64,000 bases of DNA from a virus: positions 10,962-74,961 of the IMG/VR virus record IMGVR_UViG_3300020196_000021; one strand, written 5' to 3'. This document shows, piece after piece, positions 1-62,921 of this stretch (positions are counted from its first letter, which is position 1; each line of letters begins with the position of its first letter). A program made the translations under genes and the position numbers. Under the pieces are notes generated by a model. The model was not told the DNA's origin. It did no database searches and saw nothing but the letters and a program-made list of their open reading frames with translations.

Positions 1-967
1 CGATGTCTTCCTTGAGTTCAACCTTTGCTTTGGGGAAATAAGTTTCCTTAATTGTTTCCAGTTTTGCTCTAAAGGACTCTTCGGATTCAAACTCAATTCC
101 TTCTGCAAGGGAAGCAAGCTTCTCTGCTTGGGTTTGAGCAAGACCCTTAGAAACATCGGCAATCAATGACTCTTTTACAAAAGTATTGATTTTGCCGTTG
201 AGTGACACATTTTTTTCAATTTGCTCATTGAGCTTATCTTCCATCTCATCTAATTTATTTGTCATCTCTTCTAATACATCATATCTATCTTCAGGGATTG
301 AAACATAATTTTCTTCAAAAAGACCTTTAACGCCTGCCATGAAGTTTTCCATAACTTCAAGTTTAATACCTTGGGTAATGGCAAGTTCGTTTTCTTTTCT
401 CCATTCTTCGGCAACGTAAGAAAGGAACTTGTCCATCTTCTCAGCAAATTCTGCTTTGATGGTTTCAAGTTCTTCACACATTTTATTCTCATACTGCTTC
501 GTCATTGCCTTCTCTTTATCTGCAACTTTTGCCTTAATAGCTGCTTCAAAGATAAGTTTGGTTTTTTCTTTAAACTCTTCAGAGAGTTCCTCACCAGCAA
601 TCAGCGCATTAACGTCTTCATCAACGCTAAACTCTTCAGTGGTTTCCTCTTCAGCAATAACCTCTTCGGTTTCAGAAATTTCTTCTTCTTCTTTGAGTTT
701 GCCTTTAGAACCTTCCGCTGGTTTTGCTTTGGCGTTGTTCTTGTCCTTCACTTGTGATGTACCAGTTACGGTAATCTTTGATGAATTGTCATCAGATTTG
801 TAATTCTGATTAGTAGGACCGCCAGTGTTTTGCTTCGCAGTATCTTGAGGAGCAGGGATAGATGCAGCCTGCATTGGGTCGGCACCCTTTGCACCATCTG
901 TCACTTGACGCTCCTGCAAGTTTTCTTCTACGAAAGTTTCAAATTTTTGGTCAACTGATGCTGACAT
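1..967 (-). CDS. gp22: Prohead core scaffolding protein gp22 (5' part; runs off the left end of the window)
   Basis: ATG at 965-967 with AAGGAG RBS. Reads MSASVDQKFETFVEENLQERQVTDGAKGADPMQ... then acidic coiled coil. Lies directly downstream of gp21, as in T4-like phages. Not in the ORF track because it is truncated. Confidence 0.88.
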   Translation of the reverse strand, partial: MSASVDQKFETFVEENLQERQVTDGAKGADPMQAASIPAPQDTAKQNTGGPTNQNYKSDDNSSKITVTGTSQVKDKNNAKAKPAEGSKGKLKEEEEISETEEVIAEEETTEEFSVDEDVNALIAGEELSEEFKEKTKLIFEAAIKAKVADKEKAMTKQYENKMCEELETIKAEFAEKMDKFLSYVAEEWRKENELAITQGIKLEVMENFMAGVKGLFEENYVSIPEDRYDVLEEMTNKLDEMEDKLNEQIEKNVSLNGKINTFVKESLIADVSKGLAQTQAEKLASLAEGIEFESEESFRAKLETIKETYFPKAKVELKEDI

Positions 968-1861: not shown

Positions 1862-3463
1862 TTATTTTCCTGCTGCTTTTGGTGGAGCGGGAGGATTTTT
1901 AAGTTGATCAAGTGAAACCTTTTTGGTTTCCATGTCAAGTTCAGCATTTTGCTTTTCTTGAGCAATTTGATTGAGCGGATCAATTACTTGACCCGTCTTA
2001 ATTTCACTATTTATCTGTTCTTTCATCTCTTCAATTTCTTGCTCTGTAAATTTGAGCAATTGGCGCATAACATAATCTTGAGAGAAATACTTTCCAACAT
2101 ACAGATCTAATTTATCAAGTACATCCATTTTGGATTGAAGCATATCAAGTTCTGCCATTTCAGAGAATTGATTATCGTATATAAAATCATATTGTATATG
2201 CTCCTTCATCTCTTCCCAATCTTCAGGAGCAATGACTCCCTTAAGAATAAGTTGAGTTCTTAAAATATCATGAAAAAGATCTGAAAACTTTTTACGGAGA
2301 CGACCTACAAATTTAGTAAATTTAATTTCGTCTCTATTAATTTCTTCTGACTTTCCAAGATCAAAAGATTTATCACTCTCTAAACGTGATGGGGGTACAT
2401 TAAGTGCTTTGTAAAGTTGTGTTTGAAAATATTTAATATCAGTAAGTTCACCTAAATTCTGCCCTCCAGGCAGAGTGGTAATTTCTGTACCTCTTCCTCC
2501 TTCACGACGAGGTAACCAAAAATCTTCAAGCATACTCATATGCTTTTTATCATCACGGATTTCACCAGTTTGTGAATCATAAACAAGTTTATTTCTATAG
2601 CGTGACATTACCTCTCTAAGATATTGTTCCGCTTTTACTTTCGGTAAATTGCCTACATCAATGTAAAAGATTCTGCGCTCTGGAGCACGAGACAAACGAT
2701 AGATAACGATACTATCTTCAAGCATTCTTAATTGATTAAGGAACTTGATTGCTTTATGAAGATAACTTAAATTAATATTTCTACCTTGATCCATTAAACC
2801 AGAGGTTATTGATGCAATAGCATCTGGTGCAATTTTTATGCCTTGATTAGTATTATTGATTCCTTTGTTATTGTAAACAAAAAACTCAGTAACTTTACCA
2901 AAATCATGTCTCATGAATTGGTCAGAATCTACTGGAGGTTTTACTACTTGTCTTACCTTTTTAATTTTTAAAGGGTCAATATATCTTAATTCTAATATTC
3001 CTTTTGATGGATCTTCAAGATCAATTACTTTATGATAATATATTCTTCCATCAATATACCAACGCCTAAAAATTTCGTGACCAGTTTTGTCAAAATCAAG
3101 TAATCTTTTGACGTGATTAAATTCTTCTCTAATTGAATTTTTAATTGATTCTGATACTTGTAAATTTGATAGTTCTACTTCTACTGGACTATCATCTCTA
3201 TCTGAAACAATTGCTTCGTTGCTAATATCTTCGATAGCACTATCAACTTCTGGATGAAGTGCCATTTCTCTATATCTACGAATAAGAGCAACTTCGTCTC
3301 TTTTTTTCGTATCATCAAGATCTACATAATGACCAAACCATCCCCCATACGGAAGGATGGTAGAAGAAGTGTCATTATCAGAAGGAGGAACAGGGGACGC
3401 TGGTGCTTTTGCCCCCTGAATTAATTCATCCTTCTTTATTTGAAAACCAAATAACTCCGCCAT
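1862..3463 (-). CDS. gp20: Portal vertex protein gp20
   Basis: Motifs YRLSRAPERRIFYIDVGNLPKVKAEQYLR and EDFWLPRREGGRGTEITTLPGGQNLG. Confidence 0.98.
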   Translation of the reverse strand: MAELFGFQIKKDELIQGAKAPASPVPPSDNDTSSTILPYGGWFGHYVDLDDTKKRDEVALIRRYREMALHPEVDSAIEDISNEAIVSDRDDSPVEVELSNLQVSESIKNSIREEFNHVKRLLDFDKTGHEIFRRWYIDGRIYYHKVIDLEDPSKGILELRYIDPLKIKKVRQVVKPPVDSDQFMRHDFGKVTEFFVYNNKGINNTNQGIKIAPDAIASITSGLMDQGRNINLSYLHKAIKFLNQLRMLEDSIVIYRLSRAPERRIFYIDVGNLPKVKAEQYLREVMSRYRNKLVYDSQTGEIRDDKKHMSMLEDFWLPRREGGRGTEITTLPGGQNLGELTDIKYFQTQLYKALNVPPSRLESDKSFDLGKSEEINRDEIKFTKFVGRLRKKFSDLFHDILRTQLILKGVIAPEDWEEMKEHIQYDFIYDNQFSEMAELDMLQSKMDVLDKLDLYVGKYFSQDYVMRQLLKFTEQEIEEMKEQINSEIKTGQVIDPLNQIAQEKQNAELDMETKKVSLDQLKNPPAPPKAAGK

Positions 3464-17612: not shown

Positions 17613-20600
17613 TTACTGTTCCTCAGATACTAATTCAACTTCAACTTCTAACTTTTCAATATCCTTACGTGTGGCTTGTACGAAATAGAACGCTTGCCCA
17701 CCACCTATGTATATCTTATTATTTTCAATTTTTTCAACCCATGAATTGTGATTACCAATAGAAGTAAGTTGAACAGTAATTGTATCTTCATCTACAAGAG
17801 CAATCCAGTAATCTGGAAGTTCAATTACATCAGTTGCTTTGCCACGAACATAAACTCCATGCTCTGGTCCTTCTAACGAACCATAAACAAGATCATAGTT
17901 TTCTTTAGTTGGGTGTGGAATGCGGAATGACTTAGAAGTAGCAGCAAATGAACCATTAACTTGTAACTTATAAGTGGTATTAGTATTAGTTCCAATACCT
18001 ATTTGTAAGTTATTATTGATATATAATGCTTGAGTTGCAGCAGTAAAGGAATTTGAACTACCTCTTCCAATTGTAAAGTAATCACTAAAGGAACTCCAAA
18101 TTGTATACCAAGATGAATATGATGTATTTCCTTGAACTAATCCAGTATGACTTGCACCAGTTGAGTTTAAGTTGCTTCCCTGCCACATGGTAGCAGCACC
18201 ATTTGCTCCATGATATGTCATACCAATTTCATTAATTGTGGTAGTATTACCAGCATAAATCATTTGGATTCTAGATCCATCATGACCTCTATTAATTGTT
18301 AATGGAGCACCATTTGGTTGAGTAGTCGTTACAAATAATCCACCACCAATTGAATTATTTCTAAAATAACCTTGAGTTGCTGAACTATCCGTATTGAAAT
18401 ATATTGGACTATTATCATTCTGAGCAAATACAGCACCACCTGGACTAGAAGTAATATTTAATCTATTACCTATTCCAGTAGATTCGCTAATTCCAAGATC
18501 TGATTTGATACGTAAAGGACCCGTTAAAGTACCACCAGACAGTGCAAGGTTACCACTTGCAGTACCAGTTAAGTTTGCAGTAATATTATTTGCAGCAAAA
18601 TTACCAGAAGAATCACGTTGAACTGCTTTGCTATTCGCATTAGTATCATAAATTGCACCAGTAAATCCAGAACTGAATGTAATGTTTCCAGCGTGCCATA
18701 CGTTGTTGCCATTGACTTGAAGTGCAGTGGCAGTACAATTTAATGTACCAGTTCCAAGTGTAGATGAACCACCAGAAGCAATTAATCTTACGTCAAAATC
18801 GACATTATTGCCAGAGGTATTAAAATCAATATATGCAGATGTACTTTCAACAATATTACCAAGTTCTAAGAATGCATTTCCACCTCCATCAGATCCAAGA
18901 CGTGCCTTACGTCTTGCATAAGTTTCTACTGATGTAATTCCAAAATCAGTAACTGGATAGTATTCTGCTGGGGCAGTTGCAGTACCAATCTTTTTAATTG
19001 TTGTATTTAAGTTACCAGAAATTAATTCAACGGTAAGAATTGTCCATGGATTTTCAACCTTTCTTTCATATTCAAATATTGCAGTTCCACCAGTTGCAGT
19101 TACTTGACCTGAAATATGAGTTGGGGGTACTGTACCTCCAGTATAACTACCAGTATTTGCATTAGCAACTCTGTAAATATTATGACCATAAAGAATTCTA
19201 TCATTTCTATTCAAGTTAGTTAAACCAGAAACCCACTCAGTATTTTTTTCAACATACTGTTCGCCAGTTAAGTAATTTGCAGGATCTAAATTAATTTTCC
19301 TTGCGAGTACTCTAACTGTACCTTCGTTGACATTATTTGCGGTATACAGATTTAACTGTATACCTGCTGTTCCTGCTTGAGTATCTAATGAATTTATTAA
19401 TTCTTGAGTTAAGTTATAACCTTCAATGTACACATCATAATGACCACCATTATTTGTTTGGAACGCTGGACTTGGAACTACAATTCTAAGTTCCTTATTG
19501 ATTGAATGTTCGTCTAATTGTAATGGGAGTTTAGTATTAGATATTGTATTTTCATTGATGTTCAGCGCATTTAAATACCAACGCTTATTCTTGTATTGCA
19601 GAAGATCTGCATCTAATCCAGAACCAATACCATCATTTCCATCATGCCATAATTTTCTCCAAGATGACCAAGTGTTACCTGGAGCAGATCCACTTCCCAA
19701 GAATGCAAGAGTTGCAGTTATAACTGCAGGCGTAGTTATTTGCCTTGTATTTTGAGTACCAAACTGTTCAAATGGTAAGAAAGCTTGGAAAGTTCCAGTA
19801 GCAGTTCCAGTTCTATTGTATCCCCATCCACCATCTTTGAGGGTTACTGTTGTAATAGTACCACCAGAAACTATAATGTCTGCGGTTAATCCAGAACCTT
19901 CTCCACCACCAAGAAGAACGTTTGTATACGTGCCATTTTTATAACCAGCACCACCAGAAGTAATAGTAAGAGATGATACGTGGTTTGGTCCATTACTTCT
20001 AACCCAAATATTTGTATTATCAGTTTGACCTATTTGAGCAAGTGCTCCACTAGAAAAATCAGTAGAAGAACCTGATCTTCTGAAAGTCATAACACCATGA
20101 TATAAACCACCATCTGCTAAGAATTGATTTGTATCATAACCTTGAGTATTGCTCTTCCAATTAAAGATTACACCTTCTCCAAAGTTTGAAGGTGCAAAGA
20201 TAGAAGTCCTAGTATCTACAGATTTTAATATTGTTGATGTTGCAGCATTTTGCTCAATTGAAATATTGTATGTACCAGATAATCTATCTTTTGGCAATAC
20301 GCCAGAAGATATATTTGCAGCGTTTGTAAAGAAGGAAGAATCCCTTGTATCAAGAGTATCTGCATCTAATCCAGAACCTTGACCAGTTTTTAAAGTTGCT
20401 CCTCCATTTGCACTGAAATCAAATTGACTCTTAAGAAATCTAACTACACCAAGATTACCAAATGGTTCTGCTGCAACAGTTATGCCATCAACTCTATTAA
20501 TATCAATAACACCATCATTAAATATTTTTGGTGTTGTTGCAAGAATTGCTCTTAATGATGCCGCAGAAGAACCATTTGGAGTGCCAATAATAGATGGAAT

Positions 20601-23600
20601 AGGATTAATTGCAAAATCACCAGTAAATCCAACTCCACCATCGGTGATACCAATTGTTCTAACTACACCATTAGCGATTATGCAAGTTGCTGTAGCATCA
20701 ACTCCACCACCACCTTCAAATGTAACTATTGGAGTAAAACCAAGTCCAGAACCACCATCAAGTATTCTAATAGAAGTTACAACACCATTAGAAACAATTG
20801 CTATCGCCTTAATGCTATTAATTGGTTGTGGAATTGCTTGATTGTCTTTAAAAATAATAGTTGGAGCGGTTGTATAACCAGTACCACCATTAGTTACAGT
20901 TACAGATCTTACTGTTCCATCGCTGATGAAAATAGTTCCTTTAAGACCTTCAGATCCAGTATTCCCACCAAGTAGTAAAGTATCAGTATAAGTTCCTACT
21001 GTGTAACCTGTACCACCATTTAATATTTGAATCTGTTTAATATATGAACTTGTTGTATTGTTGGAACCAATTACAATTGGGGAACCATCAGAAATACGAA
21101 GAGATGATACTGTAGGAGCAAATCTAGAATCTCCTCTAAGATAAGTTAATGAGTTAGAAGGATAATTTGCACTAATTGTTGCTAACCTTGCTGGGTTAAT
21201 AACACCACTTGTAATAAATGAGGCATCAATCGTTGATGATGTTAACTGAACCCAGTTGTTGGCATTAGAACCTGATGTATTAATTGCATCAGTCAATGAT
21301 ATTGTAATAGGAGTTGCAGAAAAATCATTAATAGTATCTACAACTGCTGTTTTAATATTATTGAGAATATTAATTCCCAATCTTGATCTAACAACACTGG
21401 TTAATACTGCTCCATTACCAGTAGCACTACTAATTGTTATTGTTCCTGCAGCAGTTGATGGTGCAGTATAATATTTACTACCTCTTGTAATTAAAGTTAC
21501 TCCAGTAATTTGACCAGAAGTTACAGTAAGAGTAGCTGTTGCAGCGACTCCGCCAGGAGGAGCACTAAATGTAACAGTATCATTTGAAGTGTATCCAGAA
21601 CCACCATTATTAATAATAACTTGCCTTACTTGTCCGATAGTAAATGATGTAACTTGACCTTGACCACCACCAGGAGAAGCTAAAGTTATATTTCCAGTAC
21701 TAAATGTATGAGATGGATTTGGTACAAACTGAAGTACTTGACTTTGCAAATCATTATTAAGAATATATGAAATTGTAGTATCTTGTTGAATTGCAATGTC
21801 TCCAGCAAGAGGTCCTTCTAATGCAAGACGTGCTGCTGTATCTGCAACAGTAAAAATATTAAATGGTCTTAGTGCTGGAAGTTGATCAATATTAATACGA
21901 CCAGATCCATCTAACTGAACAAGAGCATTTGGTGTTGGAACAGTTGAGTATGTTCTACCAATATAGATGCCCAACTGGTTTGAGATGTAATCCTTAACTG
22001 CTTTTTGAGTTGGAAGTAATTCATCTTTTGATCCTGGTCCACCAAGCTCAATAGCACCCAATGTATTATCTGCAGAAAATCCAGTAATAACTACATTATT
22101 CCCTTTAATCTTTAAGAATTCAACTTCAGAAATTGTAACTGTACCACCGAAGGTAATATTACCAGTTCTGTTTTCTACCTTAGCAAAATATCCAATCTTA
22201 AAGTCACCTAGTTCATCAGTACCTGAGGCATACACGCGACCATTGTTCTGTGATACTTGTTCAAAATCTCCAGTGTTATCAGAACCTCTCTTACCCCCAT
22301 TTTGTGGAAGAGCATTATAATTATTACCAGATCCAGAAAATTCCCAAGTATGAGAAGAAGAGTTACAAATTGAAGGTCTTAGTAAGTCAATTGGATGATT
22401 TATTAATTTAGCTTTGCTGGTTGATGAGATAGTAAACCAACCAGGGTTCCTAGTCGTCGTTACTCCACCTCCAGTAGGAATTGGACTTGATATTGAAGGA
22501 TTATCTAAAATTGCTTTAAGTAATGTATTTAATGTTTCAATAGCATTTTGCACATTAGTACAATCTGCAGTACTATACGGACCAGATGAAGAAGTTACAT
22601 CGTGAATAACTGTGTTATCTACATATGGAATTTCATCTGTCCAAGATGCTACATGATATCCATTAGTTGTTTGTTGTGAGGTTGGAATTGTGCCTTTTCT
22701 CAATAATAAGTTATTGATTGCTTTTTTTGCAAGTGTTCTTGCCTGATCAAGAACTTCCTTAGTTGCTGCTACATATCCAGAAATATGTTGAATTGCATTA
22801 CTACTAATATAAAGTTTACCAGCATCCCAAGTTGCATCATTAGCATCATTCTTAATATCCTTTGCCCATGCCTTTACAATTTCTTCTACATCACGAATGC
22901 ACTTATTTCTATTTTGATCATAAGCGTTTGTAGAAGTTACTGCTGCTAAGAAATATGCTTCTTCTGCAATATAACGAGCATTCTTTTCAAGGAGAACTGC
23001 AGCATCGGTAAATCTGTTGTAGTTGCCACGTACAACCATTGATGAGTTTGCTTGTACAATTGCAGTAACTGGAGCAACTGGAGTTGCACTAATCGTATCA
23101 TTAATAAAGAATAATGGATTTTGACCTGACTGTATCTCTAATTCAAACCCACCTGGCTTAATAATATAGTGCTCAAGTGGAGCAGTTCCTAATTGTTCAA
23201 TTTGGAATTTAGGAGTTCCAATATCTGTAAAGGTAATATTTTTAATAATACCTTTATCAAATTCGTATGCTTCTTCTCTTATACCAGATGCTCTTAATGA
23301 AAAAGTACCAAAATTAGATGCTGAGTTTGTCAGTGATGCATATCCACCAGATTCAACAATTGCCCCATCTTGAGTGAAGATACAGAAGACAGAAACCAAC
23401 TGCGTGTAACCATCGTTAAAGACCCTGTAACCCACTCCACCGAAGGAGATGATGGTGAATGCTGCAGCAACCATTGACTTGCCTTGTGGGGGCAAATTGG
23501 GTCTTCTGACGTTAGGTGTAGCAACTTTACTACCATCAATCTCTGCTCCACTGCCACCAAGGAATGAGATTACAGAAGAATTGAAAATATATGGAGATAC

Positions 23601-26600
23601 TTCAATGATTGGAAGATCATCCCAAGAATGACCAACATTAAAGAATTTATTATTGCTATCTAAGTAATGTGATGTTGCGTATGAAGTTGCTGGAAGTGTT
23701 CTGTTATTGATTCTATCAATAACAATATTCCATAAAGTATAGATTGAGTTTGCTACATCATCACAAGCAAAGAATCTATTTGCATCATAAGTATTTGAGA
23801 TTGTCTCGTCTTGATATGCAGTTATGTTTATTGACGCATCAAATTCATTACCAACTCCAGTTAATACAATCTCACTACTACTAGTTCCAAGAACTACCCC
23901 TACATTATAATTAAATCCAATTGTAAGTGGATCAGTTCCTACACTTTGAAGTGCAATTTGCCAAGTGATTCCTCGATCTTCAGAAACTAATATTTTACCT
24001 ACATTGCTAATTGTTGTTGCAGCCCAAAAACGATTGCCATCATGTACAATATTCCTTAATGGTCCATTAATAATTCCTGTTGGATTGGTTCTAGTTGCAT
24101 GATTTAAATTATCATTTGTAACTGCAGTAGTTACAATTGCAGTTAATGTATCGATTGATGTAGCAACATTTGCACATGCAGTTGCTGGATTTGAACCATC
24201 AAGTGAAATATCTGGTTTGAAGAATTGAGTTTGACCTAAGAAATTAGATCTTAATCCAGAAGTATATGAACTATTTGTCAAATAACTAGCAGTAATAGCA
24301 ATATTACGCATAGCATTTTTAGCAAGATTTCTTGCTTCATTGATAATGGCAACTGTTTGTGCCTCTTCTCCATCTACATGAGTAGTTCCAACATAGTAAG
24401 AAGCAGCATCATATACTTTACTATTACCACCATGACGTAAGTTATATGCTATTGCTTCTAAAACATCTACAACATCATCAATACAGTTTTGATTTCCTGT
24501 TGGGATTGTAAATGAATTTTCTGTTACATAATTAAATACTGCTTGTGCGGCAATTAATTTTTTATTCTTTAAAATTAAATCAGCAGCATCTTGATATCTA
24601 TCTGATTCTACGTTTGTTGTTGCTGAATTTGTTTCCCAAGTCAATCCACCATCATCACTTAATAATAAGGTTCCACTAGACAAGCCACCAACAACAGTTC
24701 TACCTTCAGTCCAACTAATTGAAATTAATCTATCTGAAGTGCCACTTTCTTGTGAAGTCCATGTTATACCATCTGTAGATACAATAATCTTGCCTTCATC
24801 GCCAATAGCAATAAATCTATCATAATCATCATTATAAATGATATCACTTAAAGAAGAACTAGTTCCACTTGTTCTGGTAATCCAACTAGTAGCATTTTGT
24901 GATGTTAAAACTAATCCACCATCACCAACTATAACATAGGTAGTTCCATTGTATGCAATTGCCTTTAATTGAGTGCTTCCAACAGTTTTGGTAACCCATG
25001 ATGTGCCATTATTTGAAATTAGTATTTTACCAGCAGCACCAACTGCAATGTATTCTGGTACTCCTCTTTCTCCTACTGCCCACTTGTTCCATACAATATC
25101 ATTTAATGGTTCTGTAGTACCAGAAGTTTGTGCATCCCACTGTAAACCGTTTGAAGATGTATGAATTGCACCGTTTGATCCAACTGCTACAAATTTTTGA
25201 TTGTCCCAAATAATCTTGCTATATGTTCCAGTATAACCAGATGGACGAGTTATTGCAGCAGTTGAACTATAATCAACGTACTGTAATTGATTACGCATTG
25301 CCTGAATAGACAGGTCTCTTGCTTGCTCAAATGCGTAAGTAGTTTCTTTAAGTTGATTCTCAATATGATCTAATGTACCACCAGTATAGTAATATTCTGC
25401 TGCTTCTTTAGTTGCAGCATTGCCACCCCAAGTTAAGTCATAATTGATTGCACTGATAATGTGCTTAACATCAGTTTGGCATTGAGTTTCATCAGGAACA
25501 ACTAATGCTGGATATTCTACCTTTGCTCTTCTTAATGCTTCTGCCGCAATACCATTCTTATTTCTATCAATAAGATCTGTAGCATCTAAGTACCTGTTTG
25601 ATGCTTTTATTGATTCTTCAAATTTACGTGGTGAGTTATCAAGAGAGAATACTACATAATGATCCGATGAAGTGACTGTAACTGCAAATGATGTGACATT
25701 ATAAACTCCACTAGGAGCGCCCAATGCTGATAAGTTTGTTGGAGTATCTTTGAATACTACAAACTGTTTACTAAAACCATCTTCTGTTTCAATTCTGTGT
25801 GAAATATATTGACGACCATTGAAACGATTAAGATCTGCAAATGCTCCTGTATTTGGGAAATTGGCAAAGTCAACATATTGCCCAACTTCATAATCATGAT
25901 AAACAGGAAGAGTAACAATTAAACCATCTGGATAGTTAATTGGATCATAGGTTACCGAAGTTACACCATATGAAGCATGAGTAGTTACATGCTTAACTAC
26001 TTGAGCATCAGGAGTTAACTGTTCACCATTACTTACTGAAAGATTATATGTTACTACTGGAGTGTTTGCTTGGTAAGTATATACTCCTCCAGTGGATTCA
26101 ATAAGACCTGTAATATTATTAACTACTACATAACCACTTTGATCTGTATTTAAATTAAATACAACTTCTTTTACTGTTCCAGTACCACCTAATGGAGAAT
26201 TTAAAACTTTTCCAACAGTTAAAAGTGAACCACCACCATTAGAAGTAAAGGTTAATTTCCATTCTTGTTCTGCTGATATTTTATGACCAAGTTGAAAAGT
26301 TCTTCCATATTGACCACCTAATGTTTTTGGATAATAGAATCTTTGTTTATCATCAAATACATAGGCATATCCCCAAGTTTTAATAGCAGTATTATTGTTA
26401 TCAACTTGATCGCGGAATGTAATACCCGTCACATAATTTTCATTGGAAGCTTTAAACATATGCTTCCCTGGATTTTGTGGTCTAATAATACACAGACGAA
26501 TATTATCACCAACAACTGAACAGAGATCAGGCAGAGAAATTGGATTATCTTCTAAATAATCTCCACCTGCAACAATAATAGTTTCTTTATCTCCAGTTGA

Positions 26601-27140
26601 TGCTGCTAACTGAGTTGCTCTTTTAATAGATCTGACTGGTTTAGTTGCAGAGCGACCGTCAAATGTATCGTTACCAATTTGAGCAGAAACATAGATACGA
26701 CCACCAACGTCATTGGTTGCAATGTTATAAACAAAGTTTGTGGTAGCAATTTTATTGCTATCATCATTAAATGCTGGAGTTGCAGAACGAGGGAAGAGAA
26801 TTTGACCAGTATTTGGATCAGTAAATGTATTAAGAACAGGAGCTTTTAAATTTAAACTTGGATTGACAATAGTATCAATATCAAGGTTTGCAATACGTGC
26901 AGTATCAGAAATAATAGATGTGGTTGTTCTAATTTGACCTTCTACATCTAATTCGTATTCTGGATCTAATGTATTAATGCCAACACGAACAAGTTTGTCT
27001 GCATTGTTTGATAATTTACCGAAAATGGCAACTTTTTCGTCAGCGCCCTGTCCAAGATCAACTCTTACACTAGTATCATTTTTAATTGAAAGGGTATTTG
27101 ACTTGATGATCTGCTTGTCAGCATTAAATTCTAAAGCCAT
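17613..27140 (-). CDS. Giant mosaic tail-fibre / virion protein (3175 aa)
   Basis: Beta-helix-like N-terminal region (IYVS..GND...SVVGDNIR); three Cys-containing helical repeats; BNR-type propeller; GxGYTxAP repeats; GSGLDADxL motifs; C-terminal KSFRIPHP...LEGPE...LPDYW domain. Confidence 0.85.
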   Translation of the reverse strand: MALEFNADKQIIKSNTLSIKNDTSVRVDLGQGADEKVAIFGKLSNNADKLVRVGINTLDPEYELDVEGQIRTTTSIISDTARIANLDIDTIVNPSLNLKAPVLNTFTDPNTGQILFPRSATPAFNDDSNKIATTNFVYNIATNDVGGRIYVSAQIGNDTFDGRSATKPVRSIKRATQLAASTGDKETIIVAGGDYLEDNPISLPDLCSVVGDNIRLCIIRPQNPGKHMFKASNENYVTGITFRDQVDNNNTAIKTWGYAYVFDDKQRFYYPKTLGGQYGRTFQLGHKISAEQEWKLTFTSNGGGSLLTVGKVLNSPLGGTGTVKEVVFNLNTDQSGYVVVNNITGLIESTGGVYTYQANTPVVTYNLSVSNGEQLTPDAQVVKHVTTHASYGVTSVTYDPINYPDGLIVTLPVYHDYEVGQYVDFANFPNTGAFADLNRFNGRQYISHRIETEDGFSKQFVVFKDTPTNLSALGAPSGVYNVTSFAVTVTSSDHYVVFSLDNSPRKFEESIKASNRYLDATDLIDRNKNGIAAEALRRAKVEYPALVVPDETQCQTDVKHIISAINYDLTWGGNAATKEAAEYYYTGGTLDHIENQLKETTYAFEQARDLSIQAMRNQLQYVDYSSTAAITRPSGYTGTYSKIIWDNQKFVAVGSNGAIHTSSNGLQWDAQTSGTTEPLNDIVWNKWAVGERGVPEYIAVGAAGKILISNNGTSWVTKTVGSTQLKAIAYNGTTYVIVGDGGLVLTSQNATSWITRTSGTSSSLSDIIYNDDYDRFIAIGDEGKIIVSTDGITWTSQESGTSDRLISISWTEGRTVVGGLSSGTLLLSDDGGLTWETNSATTNVESDRYQDAADLILKNKKLIAAQAVFNYVTENSFTIPTGNQNCIDDVVDVLEAIAYNLRHGGNSKVYDAASYYVGTTHVDGEEAQTVAIINEARNLAKNAMRNIAITASYLTNSSYTSGLRSNFLGQTQFFKPDISLDGSNPATACANVATSIDTLTAIVTTAVTNDNLNHATRTNPTGIINGPLRNIVHDGNRFWAATTISNVGKILVSEDRGITWQIALQSVGTDPLTIGFNYNVGVVLGTSSSEIVLTGVGNEFDASINITAYQDETISNTYDANRFFACDDVANSIYTLWNIVIDRINNRTLPATSYATSHYLDSNNKFFNVGHSWDDLPIIEVSPYIFNSSVISFLGGSGAEIDGSKVATPNVRRPNLPPQGKSMVAAAFTIISFGGVGYRVFNDGYTQLVSVFCIFTQDGAIVESGGYASLTNSASNFGTFSLRASGIREEAYEFDKGIIKNITFTDIGTPKFQIEQLGTAPLEHYIIKPGGFELEIQSGQNPLFFINDTISATPVAPVTAIVQANSSMVVRGNYNRFTDAAVLLEKNARYIAEEAYFLAAVTSTNAYDQNRNKCIRDVEEIVKAWAKDIKNDANDATWDAGKLYISSNAIQHISGYVAATKEVLDQARTLAKKAINNLLLRKGTIPTSQQTTNGYHVASWTDEIPYVDNTVIHDVTSSSGPYSTADCTNVQNAIETLNTLLKAILDNPSISSPIPTGGGVTTTRNPGWFTISSTSKAKLINHPIDLLRPSICNSSSHTWEFSGSGNNYNALPQNGGKRGSDNTGDFEQVSQNNGRVYASGTDELGDFKIGYFAKVENRTGNITFGGTVTISEVEFLKIKGNNVVITGFSADNTLGAIELGGPGSKDELLPTQKAVKDYISNQLGIYIGRTYSTVPTPNALVQLDGSGRINIDQLPALRPFNIFTVADTAARLALEGPLAGDIAIQQDTTISYILNNDLQSQVLQFVPNPSHTFSTGNITLASPGGGQGQVTSFTIGQVRQVIINNGGSGYTSNDTVTFSAPPGGVAATATLTVTSGQITGVTLITRGSKYYTAPSTAAGTITISSATGNGAVLTSVVRSRLGINILNNIKTAVVDTINDFSATPITISLTDAINTSGSNANNWVQLTSSTIDASFITSGVINPARLATISANYPSNSLTYLRGDSRFAPTVSSLRISDGSPIVIGSNNTTSSYIKQIQILNGGTGYTVGTYTDTLLLGGNTGSEGLKGTIFISDGTVRSVTVTNGGTGYTTAPTIIFKDNQAIPQPINSIKAIAIVSNGVVTSIRILDGGSGLGFTPIVTFEGGGGVDATATCIIANGVVRTIGITDGGVGFTGDFAINPIPSIIGTPNGSSAASLRAILATTPKIFNDGVIDINRVDGITVAAEPFGNLGVVRFLKSQFDFSANGGATLKTGQGSGLDADTLDTRDSSFFTNAANISSGVLPKDRLSGTYNISIEQNAATSTILKSVDTRTSIFAPSNFGEGVIFNWKSNTQGYDTNQFLADGGLYHGVMTFRRSGSSTDFSSGALAQIGQTDNTNIWVRSNGPNHVSSLTITSGGAGYKNGTYTNVLLGGGEGSGLTADIIVSGGTITTVTLKDGGWGYNRTGTATGTFQAFLPFEQFGTQNTRQITTPAVITATLAFLGSGSAPGNTWSSWRKLWHDGNDGIGSGLDADLLQYKNKRWYLNALNINENTISNTKLPLQLDEHSINKELRIVVPSPAFQTNNGGHYDVYIEGYNLTQELINSLDTQAGTAGIQLNLYTANNVNEGTVRVLARKINLDPANYLTGEQYVEKNTEWVSGLTNLNRNDRILYGHNIYRVANANTGSYTGGTVPPTHISGQVTATGGTAIFEYERKVENPWTILTVELISGNLNTTIKKIGTATAPAEYYPVTDFGITSVETYARRKARLGSDGGGNAFLELGNIVESTSAYIDFNTSGNNVDFDVRLIASGGSSTLGTGTLNCTATALQVNGNNVWHAGNITFSSGFTGAIYDTNANSKAVQRDSSGNFAANNITANLTGTASGNLALSGGTLTGPLRIKSDLGISESTGIGNRLNITSSPGGAVFAQNDNSPIYFNTDSSATQGYFRNNSIGGGLFVTTTQPNGAPLTINRGHDGSRIQMIYAGNTTTINEIGMTYHGANGAATMWQGSNLNSTGASHTGLVQGNTSYSSWYTIWSSFSDYFTIGRGSSNSFTAATQALYINNNLQIGIGTNTNTTYKLQVNGSFAATSKSFRIPHPTKENYDLVYGSLEGPEHGVYVRGKATDVIELPDYWIALVDEDTITVQLTSIGNHNSWVEKIENNKIYIGGGQAFYFVQATRKDIEKLEVEVELVSEEQ

Positions 27141-45518: not shown

Positions 45519-48500
45519 TTAGAAGTTATATATTAAATTTGTGCCAACTGTTAATGTTTGATATTCATTAATTAAATTATCAGCAGTTAATGTATATCCA
45601 AGAAAATTAGTCCAGTTTGCTGTAGTAACTGGTTTCGCAGTGTCAGTTAATTTGATGTATATAATTTTATCAATTATATCAAAATTTACAACAGTAAATT
45701 CACTAGTATTTGCATTGCCACCAAAATAATAAGTACTTAAATCAGAAGCAGATCCACTAACTTTTAATATTTGATTAAATGGTAAATCTACAATTTTTAA
45801 ATTTTGCAATTCATCTTTACTACCAACAATCAATTGATTTCTAGGAACAAAAGAAACATAAGTAAAATCAACCATTCTTTTTGGGAAATTTGTTCCTGCT
45901 GGAATTATAAAAGATATTTTATTTGTATCATCATCAGGAGATGTTGGAAAATCAGAAGAAACATTATTTATTTTTATACTTGGTATTGATGTAGTAAATA
46001 ATGTTTTACCAGTTAATGGATATGGAGATGGCGTACCGATTTGGAATATACTTGAATTTATTGTTCTTCTTGATCTTAATGATTCTCTAACTCTAGCTGA
46101 TTTGATTAAATCAGTTTTCCACCAATTATTTCCCCTATCAGATCCCAATTCAATTCCATTTGACGCTTCATATAAAACTCCAAATGATTCAGTTACAGAT
46201 AATTTAGTAGCACTAGTTTTTTGAAGGATTCTTCTAGGTGATACTTCATTATATTGTAAAAGAATATCATTTGGTTCAACCGCGACATCAATATCAATTG
46301 TATTATAATCAGATTGTGATCCAACAAAAATATATCCTTCAAAATCTGATCCTCTTTTTGGAGGAGAATTGAAATCAATAATACTTCCTAATAATTTATA
46401 AGAACTTAGTGAATCACTATATGCTTCTAAACGACCAGATTCTGTTGTAGATGGAATTTGATAAACTCCATCTATGAATAAAATTAAATTAGCAGATATA
46501 TTTGCTTCTGGTCTATTATTTGAGATTAAACTAAAAATTTCTCCAGTAACACTTCTTAAATCAAAATTAGTTTTAATTGAATTAAATTGAGAAGATATAT
46601 TTTGAATTGAAATAGTTTCTCCAACATAGAAACAATTAAATGGGGTACTATCTGTTGGTGGTTCATTAAATTGAATTTCTGAATACTCATCTCCATCATT
46701 TGAAGTATTGTTTGGATTATTTTCAATAATTGTATATGATGATCCTCTTTTTTGAAGAATGCCGTTAACAATAACAAAAATGTCTTTATTTGCTTCAATG
46801 TAAACTGAATTTCCATCCTTCAATAATGGGAATCTTGTTTTATTTGAATCAAATCCTCGTGCAAATCCACTACATTCCAATGAAACTGGAGTAATTTTCG
46901 TTACATTTGATCCATTTGAATGTACATTTGGAATAATTGATGCAAGTTGTCCTCTTAAAACTGTTAAAACATTAGATGAAATATTAGTAATTTTCATAAC
47001 TTCAACATCATTAACTAAAATATAATCATCATTAGCAAATCCACTTGAACTTACAACATTAATTGTGGTATCGGAAGATAATACCATATATGATTCATCG
47101 AGAGTTGTTTGTGTTGATGTTTCTGAAGAAGACACATATCCACTTAATAAAGTTGTACCGCTACTAAACGCATTATCTCGATTGACCTGAGTAGTATTAA
47201 TTTTGACAACAACTAATTCTCTATGATTAAATCTAATTGAATTATTTAAGGGTAATGTTATAGTGAGAGAAGATGTACTAATATTTCTTAAAGTTACTGT
47301 TGAATTTATTTTGTTTATAGAAGTAATTTCTAATTCATTTCCATCAACAGAAGTTAATCCTATTGCAGGATCAAAGACAACTCTATCCCCAACAGAAATT
47401 CCAAGAACGCTATTTAAATTAATTGTTATGGTATTATTTGGAGCAACAACAGTAGAACTAACAGATTGAATTACTGTTTTTCTGATTTGCTTATCAATAA
47501 TATTATCAACAATAGCATTAGATCCATTAGTTGGGGATACAATATAATCGCCAACAATTAAATTAGAAACATTATTTTTTATAAAAATTCTATTTTTAGA
47601 TATATCATCAAATTGATAATTTGGAGTGGAACCCAATGCTCCAGAAACATCTTGTCTTTGATATAAAAGACCTACGAATTGTCTTCCAACTTCAATATCA
47701 CCTTTAAAATATTTTTGAGGTGGTTCAGTAAAATTAATTTTTCTAATACCACTAGATCCAGCAAGGTATGAAACAAATGGAGTTTGAACTACACCATTAA
47801 TATCAAGAATATATTGATTTGAATCAATTACTAAACCAACTGGGATATCAGTTTGACCATCTTCAATTTTATAATTATACAATTCGCTAAGAATATTATG
47901 AGATGATGTTTCTAAAGAAACTAATTTTGGATCAATATAAACAACCAACGAGTCATAATTAAATGAATAGTTAAAAATTACATTGTTTGATGAATTTAAA
48001 CTATAATCAGAAGTTTTAATCAATATACCATCTACAAATATAAAATAACTTTCTTTTGATACAGTTACTGGTTTTGAAGCAATTGAAATTGCATTTCCAC
48101 TAGTTACAGATCCATTTGTAAACTGATTTCTATGAGAACCAACTATACATCTTGCTGATATTTGAGAACCAGCGGGAATACTTTCACTGAACACTAAATT
48201 GCCAGCAGACAATGTATATGAATCTGAACTTGATTGAAGGACACCATCTACAAAAACTAACCAATCGCTGGCATTGTAATTAGATCCAACAACTGCTGAT
48301 GGGAATGCAGATCCATTTTGTTGAATTAATGGGAACGTTGTAGATGCAGAAGTTGTAATTTCATTAAAACCATAGATTACATTTGCTTCATTTAATTGAC
48401 GATAAAAAAGAACATCACCACCTGGCATCAATTGTCCTGCATTTTCTACAGATTCAAAACTAAAAGTTTTATCAGCATCAGTTACAGTCCAAGAATCTCC

Positions 48501-51500
48501 GTAAGTTTGAACAATATTATCCAAAATTACAAGCATTTGATCAATACTATAATTGGTAATATACTTATCAGTTACTCCGTCATCATTTTTTGGTTGAATT
48601 GGGTCAATGACCTTTAATTCAAATGATGTTTTTATACCATTAAACTCATTAGAAAAATCCTCAAATGCTGCAACTACAGAAGTTTTAATATTTTTTACAT
48701 CAGTTAATAGTTTATTAGCAACCTGAACTTCATCAACTGAGATATTTTTTGTAATCAGATAATTATATTTTTGATTCAATCTCACAATAGAAGATACATC
48801 AGTAGATATTGTTACTTTTGTTTCTGATGTAACTGGTAATTTTGCACGTTGATTGATTTTAGTTTTTGCAAATAAATTATATCCTGCTGGATGAGCGGTT
48901 GAAATATAATTTTCTCTCCATTTATCTACGGGGACATTGGATGATATCTCATAAGCAAATTTTTGATATCTAAAACTATCTTGTAATTTAAAAATATTTT
49001 CGCCAAGGAATGAATTTTGACTTAAGAAAAGTTTTGGTTGTTCTAAATATGCTCCAAGTTTTAATGATGTATTAACCCCATCAACAAAATCTATTTTACC
49101 ATATGATTCAGAATTAACTCCTCTTATAATATCATTTACTTTTAATTCATATTGCAATCCAGTTATTCTTAATATTGAATTATTTTTTTGCCATCCTTTT
49201 ATAGTTGACACATATCCAAAAGTATTTGGGTTATCATTGATAATAACTTTTTCATTTGCAAAGAAATCAGATTTATCAATAATTAAAGTTATTGATGCTT
49301 TTCTTTCATTCAATAAAACTTTATAATATTGTACTTGTGCGTTTGTTGGCACAGAGATATAATCTAATGGATTAACATAAGTTTGTGATGCTAAAGTTAA
49401 TTTTGATTTAATCGATGCTGTTTGTAAATCTGCAAAAAATGTTACAGTCGATTCTTGATATTTTAAATTGGAATTTGTATCTAAGTAATATGCTCTTACT
49501 TTATAAGAATCATTTTCTTGGAAATAATCAGTAAAATCAAATTTAAATGACAAATCACCATTACTATTGATTGTTGTAAAATATGTTTTTTCGACATCTA
49601 TAGTAGGTGCTGATGAATACGAAACTCCAGGATAAATTATATCTACTGAAATTACTTTTTCATTATTTACATTTACTATCAAGGATGCATGTTGAGTATC
49701 TCCATCTCCTAATCCTCCACCTTTAATAACTGGACTGTTTGAAAATAAATATCCATCTCCTGGATCATCAATTCTATACGAAACAACTTTATAATTATTT
49801 TTTAACTTAGCTATTATTGGAAAAGAAATAACAGGTGAATACGATGGATTTGGACTATATCCATAACCATTTGATGCATTAGCAATAGATTTAACTGATC
49901 CAACAGTGCTAGAGAATGCTTCTAAAGTAGCGCCAACTCCATTTGCAGTTACAAATCCAGTTACACTAGGGAGAATTTTATAATCAAATCCACCAGAAGT
50001 CAAAGTTGCTTTATGAATTGGTCCATTTGCAACTTTTGATGTAGTAATATAATTAATAGTATTTGAATTGTAATCAGTAAATAGTGGATTTCTATCTATA
50101 TAAAACTCAAAATAATTTGAAGTAGAATTCTCAATATAAAATTCACCATTATAAGGTTCAAATCTAATATTTAACTTTACATCTCTATAAATTCCCTGAG
50201 ATTGTAAAGTAATACGCATTATAACATTAGTTAAATCTGAAGATTTTGGTACAATAGTAAATTTTGTTATTTTACCACTACCATCAAGTTCAATTGTGTT
50301 GTCAATATCAAAATATTCTTTTTGTTTATCTAATTCAGTAGAAAAACTAAAAAATTGAACAGTTATTGGTTCAACAGATTGAACATTAAAAATATATTTA
50401 CTTCTTTCATACATTTCAAGAGTGCTTCCATTAGTATAGGTTTCACTCCCTTTAGTTATTGTAAAATTAACTGGATTTATTGTAAAATTAACATTATAGT
50501 TATTTTCAAGTTTTCTAGATGCATTAACTGTAATCTGATCTCCCTGTACCAATCCATTTCCATTTGAAGTAAATCTAGATAGAATTCTATTTTCCTGATA
50601 TGATTTTACTTTTGCATTAATATATCTTAATTTAGTAACTATTGATCTTGGATAATGAAGTGATCTTACAGTATTGAATGATTGTCTTTCTACAGTAAGA
50701 ATGTGCTTAAAATTTGATCCTATTATATCAATATTTGATACTATATTTGCTTTAATATAAGTTTGACTTGTTAATAATTCAATTCTAGGATTAGACATGA
50801 TTGAACCATTAACAGTAATACCTGTTTGGTTTGGTGGTTGATCAAAAACTAAATCACTTACATCTCCATTTGCATTTAATACTACAGTTCCTTGAGCAGG
50901 TACTTGAGCACTACTATTAAGTTGCAAAATACCATTAATGAAAAGATAATAAGTATTTGCTCCAGTAGTTCCACTTCCATCTTTTATTTTGGTAAATAAA
51001 TTCTGAATTGTTTTGGTTACAGTAATGTTAACAACTTTGAAAATTTCCTCATCTACTTTAATAATATCTCCGATATTAAATTTTGAACTATCAAAAACTG
51101 GTAATTCACTCAACAAAGTAACAGTAGATCCATCTGCATGAGGTGTTTGAATTGAATTTATACCTCTTTCAACTAAGATCTTATCAGAACTTGCCTTATA
51201 CTTCACCAACATGTATTCGTCATCAATTTTTATATACTTATTGATAGTTAGGGAGAAAAAGTCATCAATTGTACAATTTGTAAATCCAAATATACTTAAA
51301 TAAGTTGTAGCACTATCGATGTCAGAATCTAATGTACATTTAGTTTCTAATCCATTTATAACTGCCACTGTAGCATTAGTTCCAGTTAATTCGTTGGAAA
51401 TTAAAACTTCTGGTGTTAATGTAGAGTCAAAAATGGGTTCTCCACTAGATGGATTATTACCAGTAACATTTTTTAAATATGCATATCTATCATTCTGATT

Positions 51501-61729: not shown

Positions 61730-62020
61730 TCACCAAACGAGGCGGGTGAACGTTACACCATCAGCGTGCACACAGTGCTCATTGATCCAGAAACCAAGGG
61801 ACACAGTAGGCATCAGTTTCAGCGCAGCGATTGCGCGACGGGATACACCGAGATAGAGGTAGGAGTTGCCGTTCTTGAATGTAGCAATCACCGTTCCATA
61901 CTTGATGCTCGCCTGAATCTTAGCGATGGCGCTACTGTTGCGCTCTGGGGTCTTGATCAGTTCGATGCTGTCCTGATCGGTGCTGATCTGGGGGAGAGCG
62001 ATGGGGGAGTTGATGGTCAT
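61730..62020 (-). CDS. Early minigene A, KTSC-like domain
   Basis: SSAI...TFKNG.SYLY.GV...SLG.WIN pattern matches KTSC. Confidence 0.7.
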   Translation of the reverse strand: MTINSPIALPQISTDQDSIELIKTPERNSSAIAKIQASIKYGTVIATFKNGNSYLYLGVSRRAIAALKLMPTVSLGFWINEHCVHADGVTFTRLVW

Positions 62021-62044
62021 GGTCTGTTTGTGGTTGACTCTGTG

Positions 62045-62103
62045 ATTCTAGGCGCGGGGGGAGGGAGGAGGGGGGCAGGAAGTGCCACCCCCTCGATTGT
62101 CCA
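62045..62103 (-). promoter_or_regulatory. Early promoter module 1
   Basis: Minus strand TGGACA-N10-TGGCAC, 31 nt, TAGAAT. Confidence 0.75.
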
Positions 62104-62280
62104 TCAGATGGCGCTGGTGCCCTTGGCGACCCACAGGGCAAGACGCATCGTGCTCGCCTTGGCGACTGCCTCAGCGGCGCGACCCTCGGCAAGCGCCTGC
62201 TTTTTCAGGGGGGAACGCTGAGCATCGGGGGCACCGATGAGAACGTTGCGAGCGATCTGGAGGGTTTGCTGTTTGGTCAT
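62104..62280 (-). CDS. Early minigene B (58 aa, Ala-rich, basic)
   Basis: MTKQQTLQIARNVLIG...; start set by the leader of the upstream module. Confidence 0.7.
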   Translation of the reverse strand: MTKQQTLQIARNVLIGAPDAQRSPLKKQALAEGRAAEAVAKASTMRLALWVAKGTSAI

Positions 62281-62307
62281 GGTTTGGTTCGTTTGGTTGA
62301 TGTGATC

Positions 62308-62366
62308 AGTATAGAGGGGGAAGGGGGCATCCGTCGCCCCCTGATGGACAGATCCTAGAGTGTCAC
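62308..62366 (-). promoter_or_regulatory. Early promoter module 2
   Basis: GTGACA-N10-TGTCCA, 31 nt (containing a GC hairpin), TATACT. Confidence 0.8.
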
Positions 62367-62518
62367 TCCTCAGGACCGAAGCAGGACTCAAGGCAAAATG
62401 CCTCCAGTTCCTGGTCGTCATCCCACAGCGAGAAGGTGTCGTCATCCTCCAGATCTTCCCAGAAGGTCTCGATCAGTTCGTCGATCTGCTGGTCATCGGT
62501 CAGGGTGAAAGTGGTCAT
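62363..62518 (-). CDS. Early minigene C (51 aa, extremely acidic)
   Basis: MTTFTLTDDQQIDELIETFWEDLEDDDTFSLWDDDQELEAFCLESCFGPEE. Confidence 0.7.
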   Translation of the reverse strand: MTTFTLTDDQQIDELIETFWEDLEDDDTFSLWDDDQELEAFCLESCFGPEE

Positions 62519-62545
62519 AGGTCGGTGTCGTTGGTTGACTTGATC

Positions 62546-62604
62546 AGTATAGAGGGTCAATGGGCGCGGGTGGGGGTGCTGAGGGACACCTTGGGAGGTG
62601 GCAC
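62546..62604 (-). promoter_or_regulatory. Early promoter module 3
   Basis: GTGCCA-N10-TGTCCC, 31 nt, TATACT. Confidence 0.8.
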
Positions 62605-62715
62605 CCGCTGATCGCTCTCATGGAGGAGGTGGACTGTCCAAGATGCCACCACAACGCTGACGGAACAGAATAGCATGATGGCGATGGATCGCCGCAGGTC
62701 GTTGTCCGTGGTCAT
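62557..62715 (-). CDS. Early minigene D (52 aa, one predicted TM helix)
   Basis: MTTDNDLRRSIAIMLFCSVSVVVASWTVHLL...; TGATG overlap with minigene E. Confidence 0.6.
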   Translation of the reverse strand: MTTDNDLRRSIAIMLFCSVSVVVASWTVHLLHESDQRVPPPKVSLSTPTRAH

Positions 62716-62900
62716 CAGGCGACAACCTCCAACCAGGCGATGGGTTTGCCATGGGTCAGACGCCACACGATCATAGGAGCGCCTCCCTCGTCAACTGACC
62801 AATCGAAGGCGATGTCCCTGGCAGTGTCGAGATCAGGGGCGAACTCAGCACCGTGCTGATCGAAGGTGCCGAAGGATTTGGGTTGGATTGCGAAGGTCAT
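62715..62900 (-). CDS. Early minigene E (61 aa)
   Basis: MTFAIQPKSFGTFDQHGAEFA...AFDWSVD..IVWR..WLEVVA. Confidence 0.72.
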   Translation of the reverse strand: MTFAIQPKSFGTFDQHGAEFAPDLDTARDIAFDWSVDEGGAPMIVWRLTHGKPIAWLEVVA

Positions 62901-62921
62901 TGGTTCTCTGTTGATGTGATC

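Follow-up and report, generated by a model that had tools for sequence, protein, structure and literature searches.

A T4-like cyanophage uses three helical modules as building units of a giant tail-fibre protein that is baseplate-proximal; with near certainty, these modules are diverged but true homologues of phycobiliproteins (PBPs), closest to the beta subunits. The alignments show that both bilin sites of the beta subunit are retained in these modules as the residue pairs Cys82-Asp85 and Cys153-Asp39. Because both cysteines are kept together with their partner aspartates, the presence of a pigment on the virion, and light sensing by it, have become testable.

The modules are encoded in the window, i.e. 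the whole stretch of 64,000 nucleotides that was analysed. The ORF list and its translation place the module-carrying gene, which encodes 3175 aa, at 17613..27140 on the reverse strand, and thus confirm the giant protein of the original prediction. Its assignment as a fibre protein is likewise supported: judged by sequence, the gene sits in the baseplate/fibre block of a T4-like cyanophage, with gp6, a gp7-like giant gene, gp8 and a gp10-like baseplate gene as neighbours, and the protein matches the PHROG family phrog_5342 ('tail fiber protein') with E 0. Further matches were found to phrog_4527 ('short tail fiber') and phrog_17885, and the annotation of the homologues in P-HM2 and S-CAM4 reads tail fiber or YapH. 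Modules are also carried by SSM1_102 (T4-GC969), a giant different from the 3175-aa protein of the window, and the T4-GC969 protein was detected by mass spectrometry in purified S-SM1 virions (PMC3037559).

The three repeats begin at aa 516, 848 and 1376, and their predicted homology was confirmed: the N-parts align without gaps over approximately 78 residues and match the family HMM with E values of about 1e-33 to 1e-41. All six cysteine codons that had been named (C554/C1126, C886/C989 and C1414/C1527) lie at the coordinates given for them, and the helices said to close each repeat with a second cysteine are real, as the full-module HMM covers modules 2 and 3 whole and the C-part of module 1 separately. 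The N-part of module 1 (aa 513-629; 25254..25604, reverse strand) comprises helices A, B, E, F' and G (HMM E 3e-33 to 3e-41) and carries D519 (Asp39-equivalent), C554 (Cys82-equivalent, codon 25479-25481) and D557 (Asp85-equivalent). Its C-part (aa 1102-1147; 23700..23837, reverse strand) consists of the end of the G-H loop and helix H, contains C1126 (23763-23765) as the Cys153-equivalent and matches positions 113-157 of the full-module HMM (E 0.0015). Repeat 1 is therefore split, as had been suggested, with a helix H that would pack on the N-part. Module 2 is complete (aa 845-1011; 24108..24608, reverse strand; full-module HMM E 9.5e-56, HMM positions 3-158), with the site residues D851, C886 (24483-24485), D889 and C989 (24174-24176). 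Module 3 is complete as well (aa 1372-1549; 22494..23027, reverse strand; HMM E 8.4e-49) and carries N1375, D1379, C1414 (22899-22901) in the sequence C-I-R-D, D1417 and C1527 (22560-22562). Across the family, N-parts and C-parts are in balance (239 vs 223).

In the AF2 model, a seven-bladed beta-propeller lies inside module 1, and module 2 lies inside this propeller. The first propeller part (aa 630-844; 24609..25253, reverse strand) interrupts the G-H loop of module 1, and the second part (aa 1012-1101; 23838..24107, reverse strand) separates module 2 from the C-part of module 1. A 651-aa model that includes the split module 1 has helices at model residues 16-116 (module 1 N-part), 348-510 (module 2) and 621-645 (module 1 C-part, pLDDT ~85), and strands at model residues 121-340 and 530-599 for the first and second propeller parts, respectively. 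Fold searches with this model returned propeller matches. The best Foldseek match was Ycf48 (TM 0.72), with alignments covering both propeller parts, and the VIA alignment spans model residues 122..598 (Z 29.5, rmsd 2.4 over 278 residues). PF14870 is present on some homologues of the giant protein.

The assignment to the PBPs is based on profiles and on the predicted fold. When a profile built from 61 modules was searched against PDB sequences, the best 60 of 114 matches were all PBPs or PBP-like proteins, with beta chains first (E 3.1e-7). PF00502 was matched singly by 23 of the 61 modules (best E 5.7e-6), no other Pfam family recurred, and a precomputed PF00502 match is found on many homologues of the giant protein. 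The modules of the window score 20.3-21.6 bits, slightly below the cut-off of 22.2; the N-part of module 1 aligns with profile positions 20-139 of 155 (E 4e-4, 20.7 bits). No match was obtained with module 2 alone against PF00502 or with repeat 3 alone in a phmmer search of the PDB, and an ESM Atlas search gave uninformative scores of at most 0.80. The NAY..R motif, by which the original prediction had connected repeat 3 with phycocyanin beta, is not part of this basis: it is one residue off the phycocyanin beta register, and the profile places a 7-residue deletion in the loop.

The AF2 model of module 3 (pLDDT 91.2, pTM 0.90) has the anticipated globin-type fold of PBPs, with predicted helices A, B, E, F', F, G and H. 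All top Foldseek matches were PBP beta chains (TM 0.55-0.59), and VIA ranked phycoerythrin beta (5aqd_M) first among 48,161 chains, with Z 15.4 and an rmsd of 2.6 A over 148 residues. Lower Z values were obtained for allophycocyanin and ApcE (~13), for haem and sensor globins (~10) and for the RsbR N-domain (~10). The N-terminal X-Y helix hairpin is absent, alignments begin at PBP residue 25-35, and helix A opens each module directly after the preceding domain. Because the X-Y helices are missing and the modules sit in a fibre, assembly into (alpha-beta)3 phycobilisome discs is unlikely.

In the profile alignment, the first cysteine corresponds to Cys82 and the second, in agreement with the position claimed for it, to beta-Cys153; C554 also falls on Cys82 when module 1 is aligned to phycoerythrin alpha. 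The Cys82/Asp85 pairs of the window are C554/D557, C886/D889 and C1414/D1417, with the aspartate at +3. C1126, C989 and C1527 align with the Cys153 of the 'GDC' sequence, and D519, D851 and D1379 with Asp39, the residue that in PBPs forms bonds to the pyrrole nitrogens of the bilin at beta-153 (PMC6614406). The C-part aligns weakly with PBPs when taken alone (domain E-values in the hundreds), and the Cys153 assignment of its cysteine is made from the position before helix H. Conservation, counted over 118 homologous giant proteins, is at least 99% for both cysteines: the Cys82-equivalent is kept in 442/443 modules and the Cys153-equivalent in 409/411, together with Asp85 (439/442), Asp39 (423/425) and Asn47 (425/425). 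Identity between modules is otherwise only ~25-33%.

The modules thus share the fold from helix A to H, the Cys82/Asp85 and Cys153/Asp39 pairs and Asn47 with PBP beta subunits (CpcB, CpeB/MpeB and cryptophyte beta chains; PF00502), but differ from them in several respects. Without X-Y helices they have no alpha-beta dimer interface, and they are embedded in virion proteins of 2-5.5 thousand aa, whereas PBP beta subunits are free proteins of ~170 aa. The residue at the propionate-binding Arg84 is mostly Asp (D 49%, R 38%, T 9% of modules), and within the window the sequence C-x-R-D occurs in module 3 only. Compared with PBPs, the profile alignment shortens the B-E loop by 7 residues across Asn72-Arg77, and equivalents of Asn72 and Arg77/78 are missing. 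In PBPs, the alpha partner shapes part of the beta-153 pocket; the modules are without an alpha partner.

The module was found in 312 phage records, all of them cyanophages, and in none of ~550 non-cyanophage T4-like records. One to 11 modules occur per protein, in tandem and nested arrays; 27 free-standing small forms are mostly gene fragments on contigs of ~1 kb. Co-occurrence with cpeT was analysed in 29 complete or near-complete genomes, 24 of them module-positive and 5 module-negative; the IMG/VR supplement of 80 gp6 loci consisted almost entirely of short fragments and provided one usable, 96%-complete contig. The co-occurrence with lyase and bilin synthesis genes that had been proposed holds for one class of genes and fails for the other. 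CpeT is clearly present in 22 and weakly in 1 of the 24 module-positive genomes, but in none of the 5 module-negative ones (Fisher p 5e-5 to 2e-4 over 29 genomes, with kinship ignored and 3-4 independent contrasts). The gp6 tree contains three independent pairs on well-supported branches, and four on the best tree; cpeT goes with the module in 2-3 of them and never in the opposite direction (sign test p >= 0.25). In S-PM2, Syn1, S-RIM44 and S-H9-2, cpeT lies 1.2-1.9 kb upstream of a module-rich giant gene. The strict form of the relation, modules only where CpeT is present, is contradicted by S-B43, which has modules and no CpeT match; in ACG-2014f, the CpeT match is sub-threshold only. A link with bilin synthesis is not borne out, as pebS and ho1 are present in P-SSM2 and S-SSM7 (Table 3, PMC3037559), in which the profile search found no module. 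MA10 has an S-type lyase without modules, and together these three phages point to host-directed uses of such genes. The window's own record, a 75 kb fragment that is 41%-complete, contains none of cpeT, pcyA/pebS and ho1.

We give close to, but less than, an even chance to the proposal that the modules carry a covalent bilin on the virion, a reading that draws on the retained site residues, the modelled fold and the co-occurrence with cpeT. During infection, the modules would be loaded with phycoerythrobilin or phycocyanobilin of host or phage synthesis. The second cysteine, i.e. the beta-153 site, would be served by CpeT, the T-type lyase of the phage, and the first by a host S-type lyase or by autocatalysis. 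The assembled virion would then bear pigment on its fibres. The likeliest use, and the most speculative step, would be a light-driven change of the fibres by which adsorption is confined to the light period. That the virion itself is a photoreceptor, with bilins made or attached via phage pebS/pcyA/ho1 and cpeT and with adsorption in daylight only, is rather unlikely in our estimate, although it would account for the orphan phage lyase as well as for an adsorption that depends on light and not on host photosynthesis. Coloured or fluorescent virions have, to our knowledge, not been reported. The mostly lost propionate-binding arginines, the shortened B-E loop, the missing X-Y helices and alpha partner, the small number of independent contrasts for cpeT and the exceptions to its co-occurrence also count against a bilin on the virion. 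P-HM1, P-HM2 and S-PM2 require light for adsorption, and P-SSM2 adsorbs in the dark (PMC6628666). By profile, P-HM2 and S-PM2 are module-positive and P-SSM2 is module-negative; in P-HM1, a fibre homologue was seen by blastn.

A serious possibility, though short of an even chance, is that the modules are free of pigment: a host PBP gene would have been captured and reduced to a compact, insertion-tolerant helical spacer from which long fibres are built. The cysteines would then form intermodule or interchain disulfides or serve as metal ligands in the extracellular virion, the aspartates would be kept for structural reasons, and the link with cpeT would reflect shared ancestry or ecology. Arrays of 1-11 modules, both tandem and nested, do resemble a structural repeat, paired invariant cysteines of extracellular proteins are usually disulfides, and the propionate-binding Arg, part of the B-E loop and the X-Y helices are lost; in addition, the co-occurrence with cpeT is not significant after phylogenetic correction, and S-B43 and MA10 are exceptions to it. 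Such a spacer, however, leaves unexplained why Asp85 and Asp39, which in PBPs are known to bond the bilin, persist at 99% or more beside both cysteines while the rest drifts to ~25% identity, and why cpeT is missing from all 5 module-negative genomes. Furthermore, if the match to the PBP beta fold holds, a disulfide between the two cysteines of one module, the obvious pairing, is unlikely, because the two sites are ~39 A apart in this fold (38.7 A between the two bilins of one beta subunit; PMC6614406).

It is improbable that the Cys/Asp sites hold another ligand (for example haem, a different tetrapyrrole or a metal ion) or that the old chromophore cleft recognises the host surface. The globin-like fold, the Z of ~10 for sensor globins and the RsbR N-domain, and the altered bilin pocket would suit such a role, but PBPs outscore haem globins (Z 15.4 vs ~10), the best 60 of the 114 profile matches are all PBPs or PBP-like, and conservation falls precisely on the bilin pairs. 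A resemblance by chance or by convergence of a helical repeat is very improbable: although the window modules score just under the Pfam cut-off, repeat 3 alone has no PDB match and middling Z-scores come easily to helical folds, the profile E of 3e-7 with only PBPs or PBP-like proteins among the best 60 of 114 PDB matches, the 23/61 modules matching PF00502 and no other recurring family, the first rank among 48,161 chains (2.6 A over 148 residues), and the matching register of both Cys and both Asp speak against it.

A bilin-bearing fibre would bear on two puzzles, both of which are now testable. CpeT and bilin synthesis genes occur in many T4-like cyanophages, including phages of Prochlorococcus, which has no phycobilisomes, and the roles of phage cpeT, pebS and pcyA have been termed 'a mystery' and 'unresolved' (PMC3037559). 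The second puzzle is the adsorption of S-PM2, P-HM1 and P-HM2, which occurs only in light and does not depend on host photosynthesis. For both, a virion protein in which dozens of PBP-type candidate bilin sites are conserved offers a concrete candidate. We know of no virus particle that bears a chromophore and responds to light; if pigment is bound, the phage would be the first such virion and the modules a new source of small, insertion-tolerant bilin-binding domains. If no pigment is bound, a host photosynthesis protein would still have been turned into a structural repeat of the virion, with an unusual nesting of domains within domains.

In gene position, PHROG families and size, the 3175-aa protein matches the giants of T4-like cyanophages (gp7-like, gp10-like, 'YapH' and T4-GC969), for which we found no description of PBP-like modules in the papers and annotations examined, where they are named only structural, tail-fibre or hypothetical proteins. 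The PBP-like domain of ApcE, the core-membrane linker of the phycobilisome, resembles the modules in being a PBP fold set into a large protein of several domains; VIA gave Z 13.1 for 4xxi_A, and 11-12 for ApcE chains of full length. ApcE likewise contains an insertion in a loop, and its bilin is attached with no separate lyase. It is, however, a host protein with one such domain inside the phycobilisome, whereas the phage modules are repeated and nested in a virion protein. Members of the PBP family outside the antenna are also known from non-photosynthetic bacteria, namely the bacterial fluorescent protein 8u0f and the bilin-biosynthesis-associated globins (PMC10151467), a paper in which phages are mentioned for bilin reductases only and not for PBP-like proteins. 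In contrast to the phage modules, these are small, free-standing proteins; the module profile matched 8u0f_C over positions 5-143 (E 5e-5), and Foldseek found it as well.

The window matches only Synechococcus and Prochlorococcus phages in blastn searches (e.g. P-HM2 and S-CAM4) and is DNA of a T4-like cyanomyovirus; it comes from an IMG/VR fragment of 75 kb. The giant fibre gene (17613-27140, minus strand) encodes a protein of 3175 aa and has a gp10-like baseplate gene on one side and more fibre genes on the other. Within this protein, three repeats start at aa 516, 848 and 1376, and their N-terminal parts align without gaps over about 78 residues. The six cysteines and their codons are located exactly where the original prediction had placed them. 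A family HMM matches these modules at E 1e-33 to 1e-41, and its application to all ORFs of the window revealed no second module-bearing ORF. The C-terminal 130 residues of the protein (aa ~3039-3170; window 17613-18100, minus strand) match two unnamed families, phrog_28536 (E 1e-31) and phrog_17490 (E 1e-28), and may constitute a fibre-tip or chaperone-like domain.

Homology of the modules to phycobiliproteins (PBPs), with the beta type as the closest relative, is well supported, because Pfam, profile, AF2, Foldseek and structural searches agree. Among Pfam families, only PF00502 (Phycobilisome protein) matches recurrently; the window's modules reach 20.3-21.6 bits, below its cut-off of 22.2, and a precomputed PF00502 match is present on many of the >600 giant homologues. 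In A1, an alignment of 61 contiguous modules gathered from IMG/VR loci, 23 modules match PF00502 singly and no other family recurs. The A1 profile matched 114 distinct PDB sequences (best E 3.1e-7), the best 60 of which are all PBPs or PBP-like proteins with beta subunits on top. The PBP fold proposed for the repeats is also borne out by the AF2 model of module 3, which was generated with A1 (pLDDT 91.2, pTM 0.90) and for which the top Foldseek matches are all PBP beta chains. A structural search against 48,161 chains put phycoerythrin beta at the top (Z 15.4, rmsd 2.6 A, 148 residues), followed by allophycocyanin and ApcE (Z ~13) and by haem and sensor globins (Z ~10). Unlike PBP beta subunits, the phage modules lack the N-terminal X-Y helices.

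Modules 2 (aa 845-1011) and 3 (aa 1372-1549) are contiguous in the full-module HMM search, whereas module 1 is split, as anticipated: its N-part spans aa 513-629 and its C-part aa 1102-1147 (the latter at E 0.0015). The AF2 model of aa 500-1150 (pLDDT 84.3, pTM 0.76) displays the order helices, strands, helices, strands and one long helix, and propeller structures align across the two blocks of strands (Z 29.5, 278 residues, model 122..598). In the predicted architecture, the G-H loop of module 1 therefore houses a seven-bladed beta-propeller (window 23838-25253 (-); aa 630-844 and 1012-1101), which in turn houses module 2. The top Foldseek match of the propeller is the photosystem II assembly factor Ycf48 (TM 0.72); the sequence similarity between the two is not significant (E 0.29). 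A match to PF14870 is present in some homologues. Across the family, proteins contain 1-11 modules, and N-parts and C-parts are in balance (239 vs 223). Some homologues (P0097, P0106, P0071 and P0060) exhibit the order N N N N F C C C C, in which 4-5 N-parts precede one full module and a matching run of C-parts. This arrangement seems to reflect serial nesting, in which every module would be inserted into the G-H loop of the preceding one.

The residues equivalent to the two bilin-attachment sites of PBPs are almost invariant among the modules. In the register of the profile-to-PBP alignments (A1), the first Cys aligns to Cys82 and the Asp at +3 to Asp85, while the second Cys aligns to Cys153 of the G-D-C motif that precedes helix H, and the Asp that is conserved within R-x-x-D-A corresponds to beta-Asp39. 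Counted over 118 proteins, the Cys82 equivalent is present in 442/443 modules, the Asp85 equivalent in 439/442, the Asp39 equivalent in 423/425 and the Cys153 equivalent in 409/411; apart from these site residues, identity among modules is about 25-33%. In phycocyanin, it is Asp39 to which the bilin at beta-153/155 is bonded through its pyrrole nitrogens (PMC6614406). On these grounds the modules could bind bilin, for which we see a little less than an even chance. The Arg84 equivalent is mostly not Arg (49% of the modules have Asp there and 38% have Arg) and the B-E loop is shortened by 7 residues in the profile alignment, with the Arg77 and Asn72 equivalents among those missing; both features count against bilin binding, and a purely structural, pigment-free role of the modules is nearly as likely. 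The bilins carried by a single beta subunit are 38.7 A apart (PMC6614406), which argues against an intra-module disulfide.

Co-occurrence of the modules with lyase and bilin synthesis genes, which had been suggested as a check, was largely seen for cpeT and not for pebS and ho1. In A1 and PF06206 searches of 28 complete Kyanoviridae genomes and one 96%-complete contig, the T-type lyase CpeT was clearly present in 22 of the 24 module-positive genomes, below threshold in ACG-2014f and missing from S-B43, and was found in 0/5 module-negative genomes (P-SSM2, S-SM2, S-SSM7, DSL-LC02 and MA10; Fisher p 5e-5 to 2e-4 over the 29 genomes). A gp6 tree shows 4 switches of the module state, and its well-supported branches provide 3 independent pairs, in which cpeT changes in the same direction in 2-3 and in the opposite direction in 0; these pairs are too few for significance in a tree-aware test. 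Thus, the link between modules and CpeT is strong but not strict. In one clade (S-PM2, Syn1, S-RIM44 and S-H9-2), cpeT is located upstream of a module-rich gene that encodes 3.8-4.0 thousand aa, at a distance of 1.2-1.9 kb. Contrary to Table 3 of PMC3037559, which gives Syn1 as CpeT-less, a 187-aa ORF of Syn1 (NC_015288, 19950-20462) about 1 kb upstream of the 4026-aa module-bearing frame matches PF06206 at E 1.5e-35. According to the same table, P-SSM2 and S-SSM7 carry pebS and ho1, yet both are module-negative, so these genes do not track the module. The module- and CpeT-negative MA10 has a gene for a 161-aa lyase of the S type, CpeS-like (PP110483, 171161-171571, minus strand; 36.9 bits summed), and therefore phage lyases can occur without fibre modules. 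What pcyA and pebS do in phages has been called 'a mystery', and the role of cpeT 'unresolved' (PMC3037559). In clusters A and B of the T4-like cyanophages, every lyase is T-type, the class serving the beta-153 site (PMC10665884, PMC10452541).

Darkness prevents the adsorption of P-HM1 and P-HM2 but not that of P-SSM2, and the light requirement of S-PM2 for adsorption is independent of photosynthesis; light-sensitive receptors or tail fibres were proposed by the authors (PMC6628666). In profile searches, P-HM2 and S-PM2 are module-positive and P-SSM2 is module-negative, which fits this pattern for two light-dependent phages versus one dark-adsorbing phage; P-HM1 has a fibre homologue by blastn only.

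All 312 module-bearing phage records detected by tblastn are cyanophages, although the window's gp6 as query matches ~550 other T4-like records in addition to 459 cyanophage records; thus, at tblastn sensitivity, the module is absent from the non-cyanophage relatives. The module carrier of S-SM1, SSM1_102, is T4-GC969, which Sullivan et al. found in purified virions (PMC3037559). The modules of many other cyanophages (S-SM1, Syn33, S-RIM2, P-SSM4 and others) reside in an open frame of 6-7 thousand aa downstream of gp6, probably the gp7-like giant baseplate gene; the window's own gp7-like ORF (45519-55922 (-), 3467 aa) contains no module according to the family HMM. Since the modules are carried by the fibre gene here and by the probable gp7-like frame elsewhere, they move between different virion proteins. 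Our literature search found no paper on PBP-like modules in phage structural proteins.

At the contig end (window 62001-64000), G+C is 0.565 compared with ~0.33 elsewhere in the window, no tRNA or Rfam match was obtained, and an ORF (63181-63615, minus strand) matches DUF7249 (E 4e-35); this segment may stem from a foreign insertion or from a join made during assembly. In the RefSeq record of S-PM2 (NC_006820, 165928-177267), 16 tRNA features, all with locus tag S-PM2t009, lie within the CDS of a 3779-aa 'short tail fiber protein', which looks like an annotation coordinate error.
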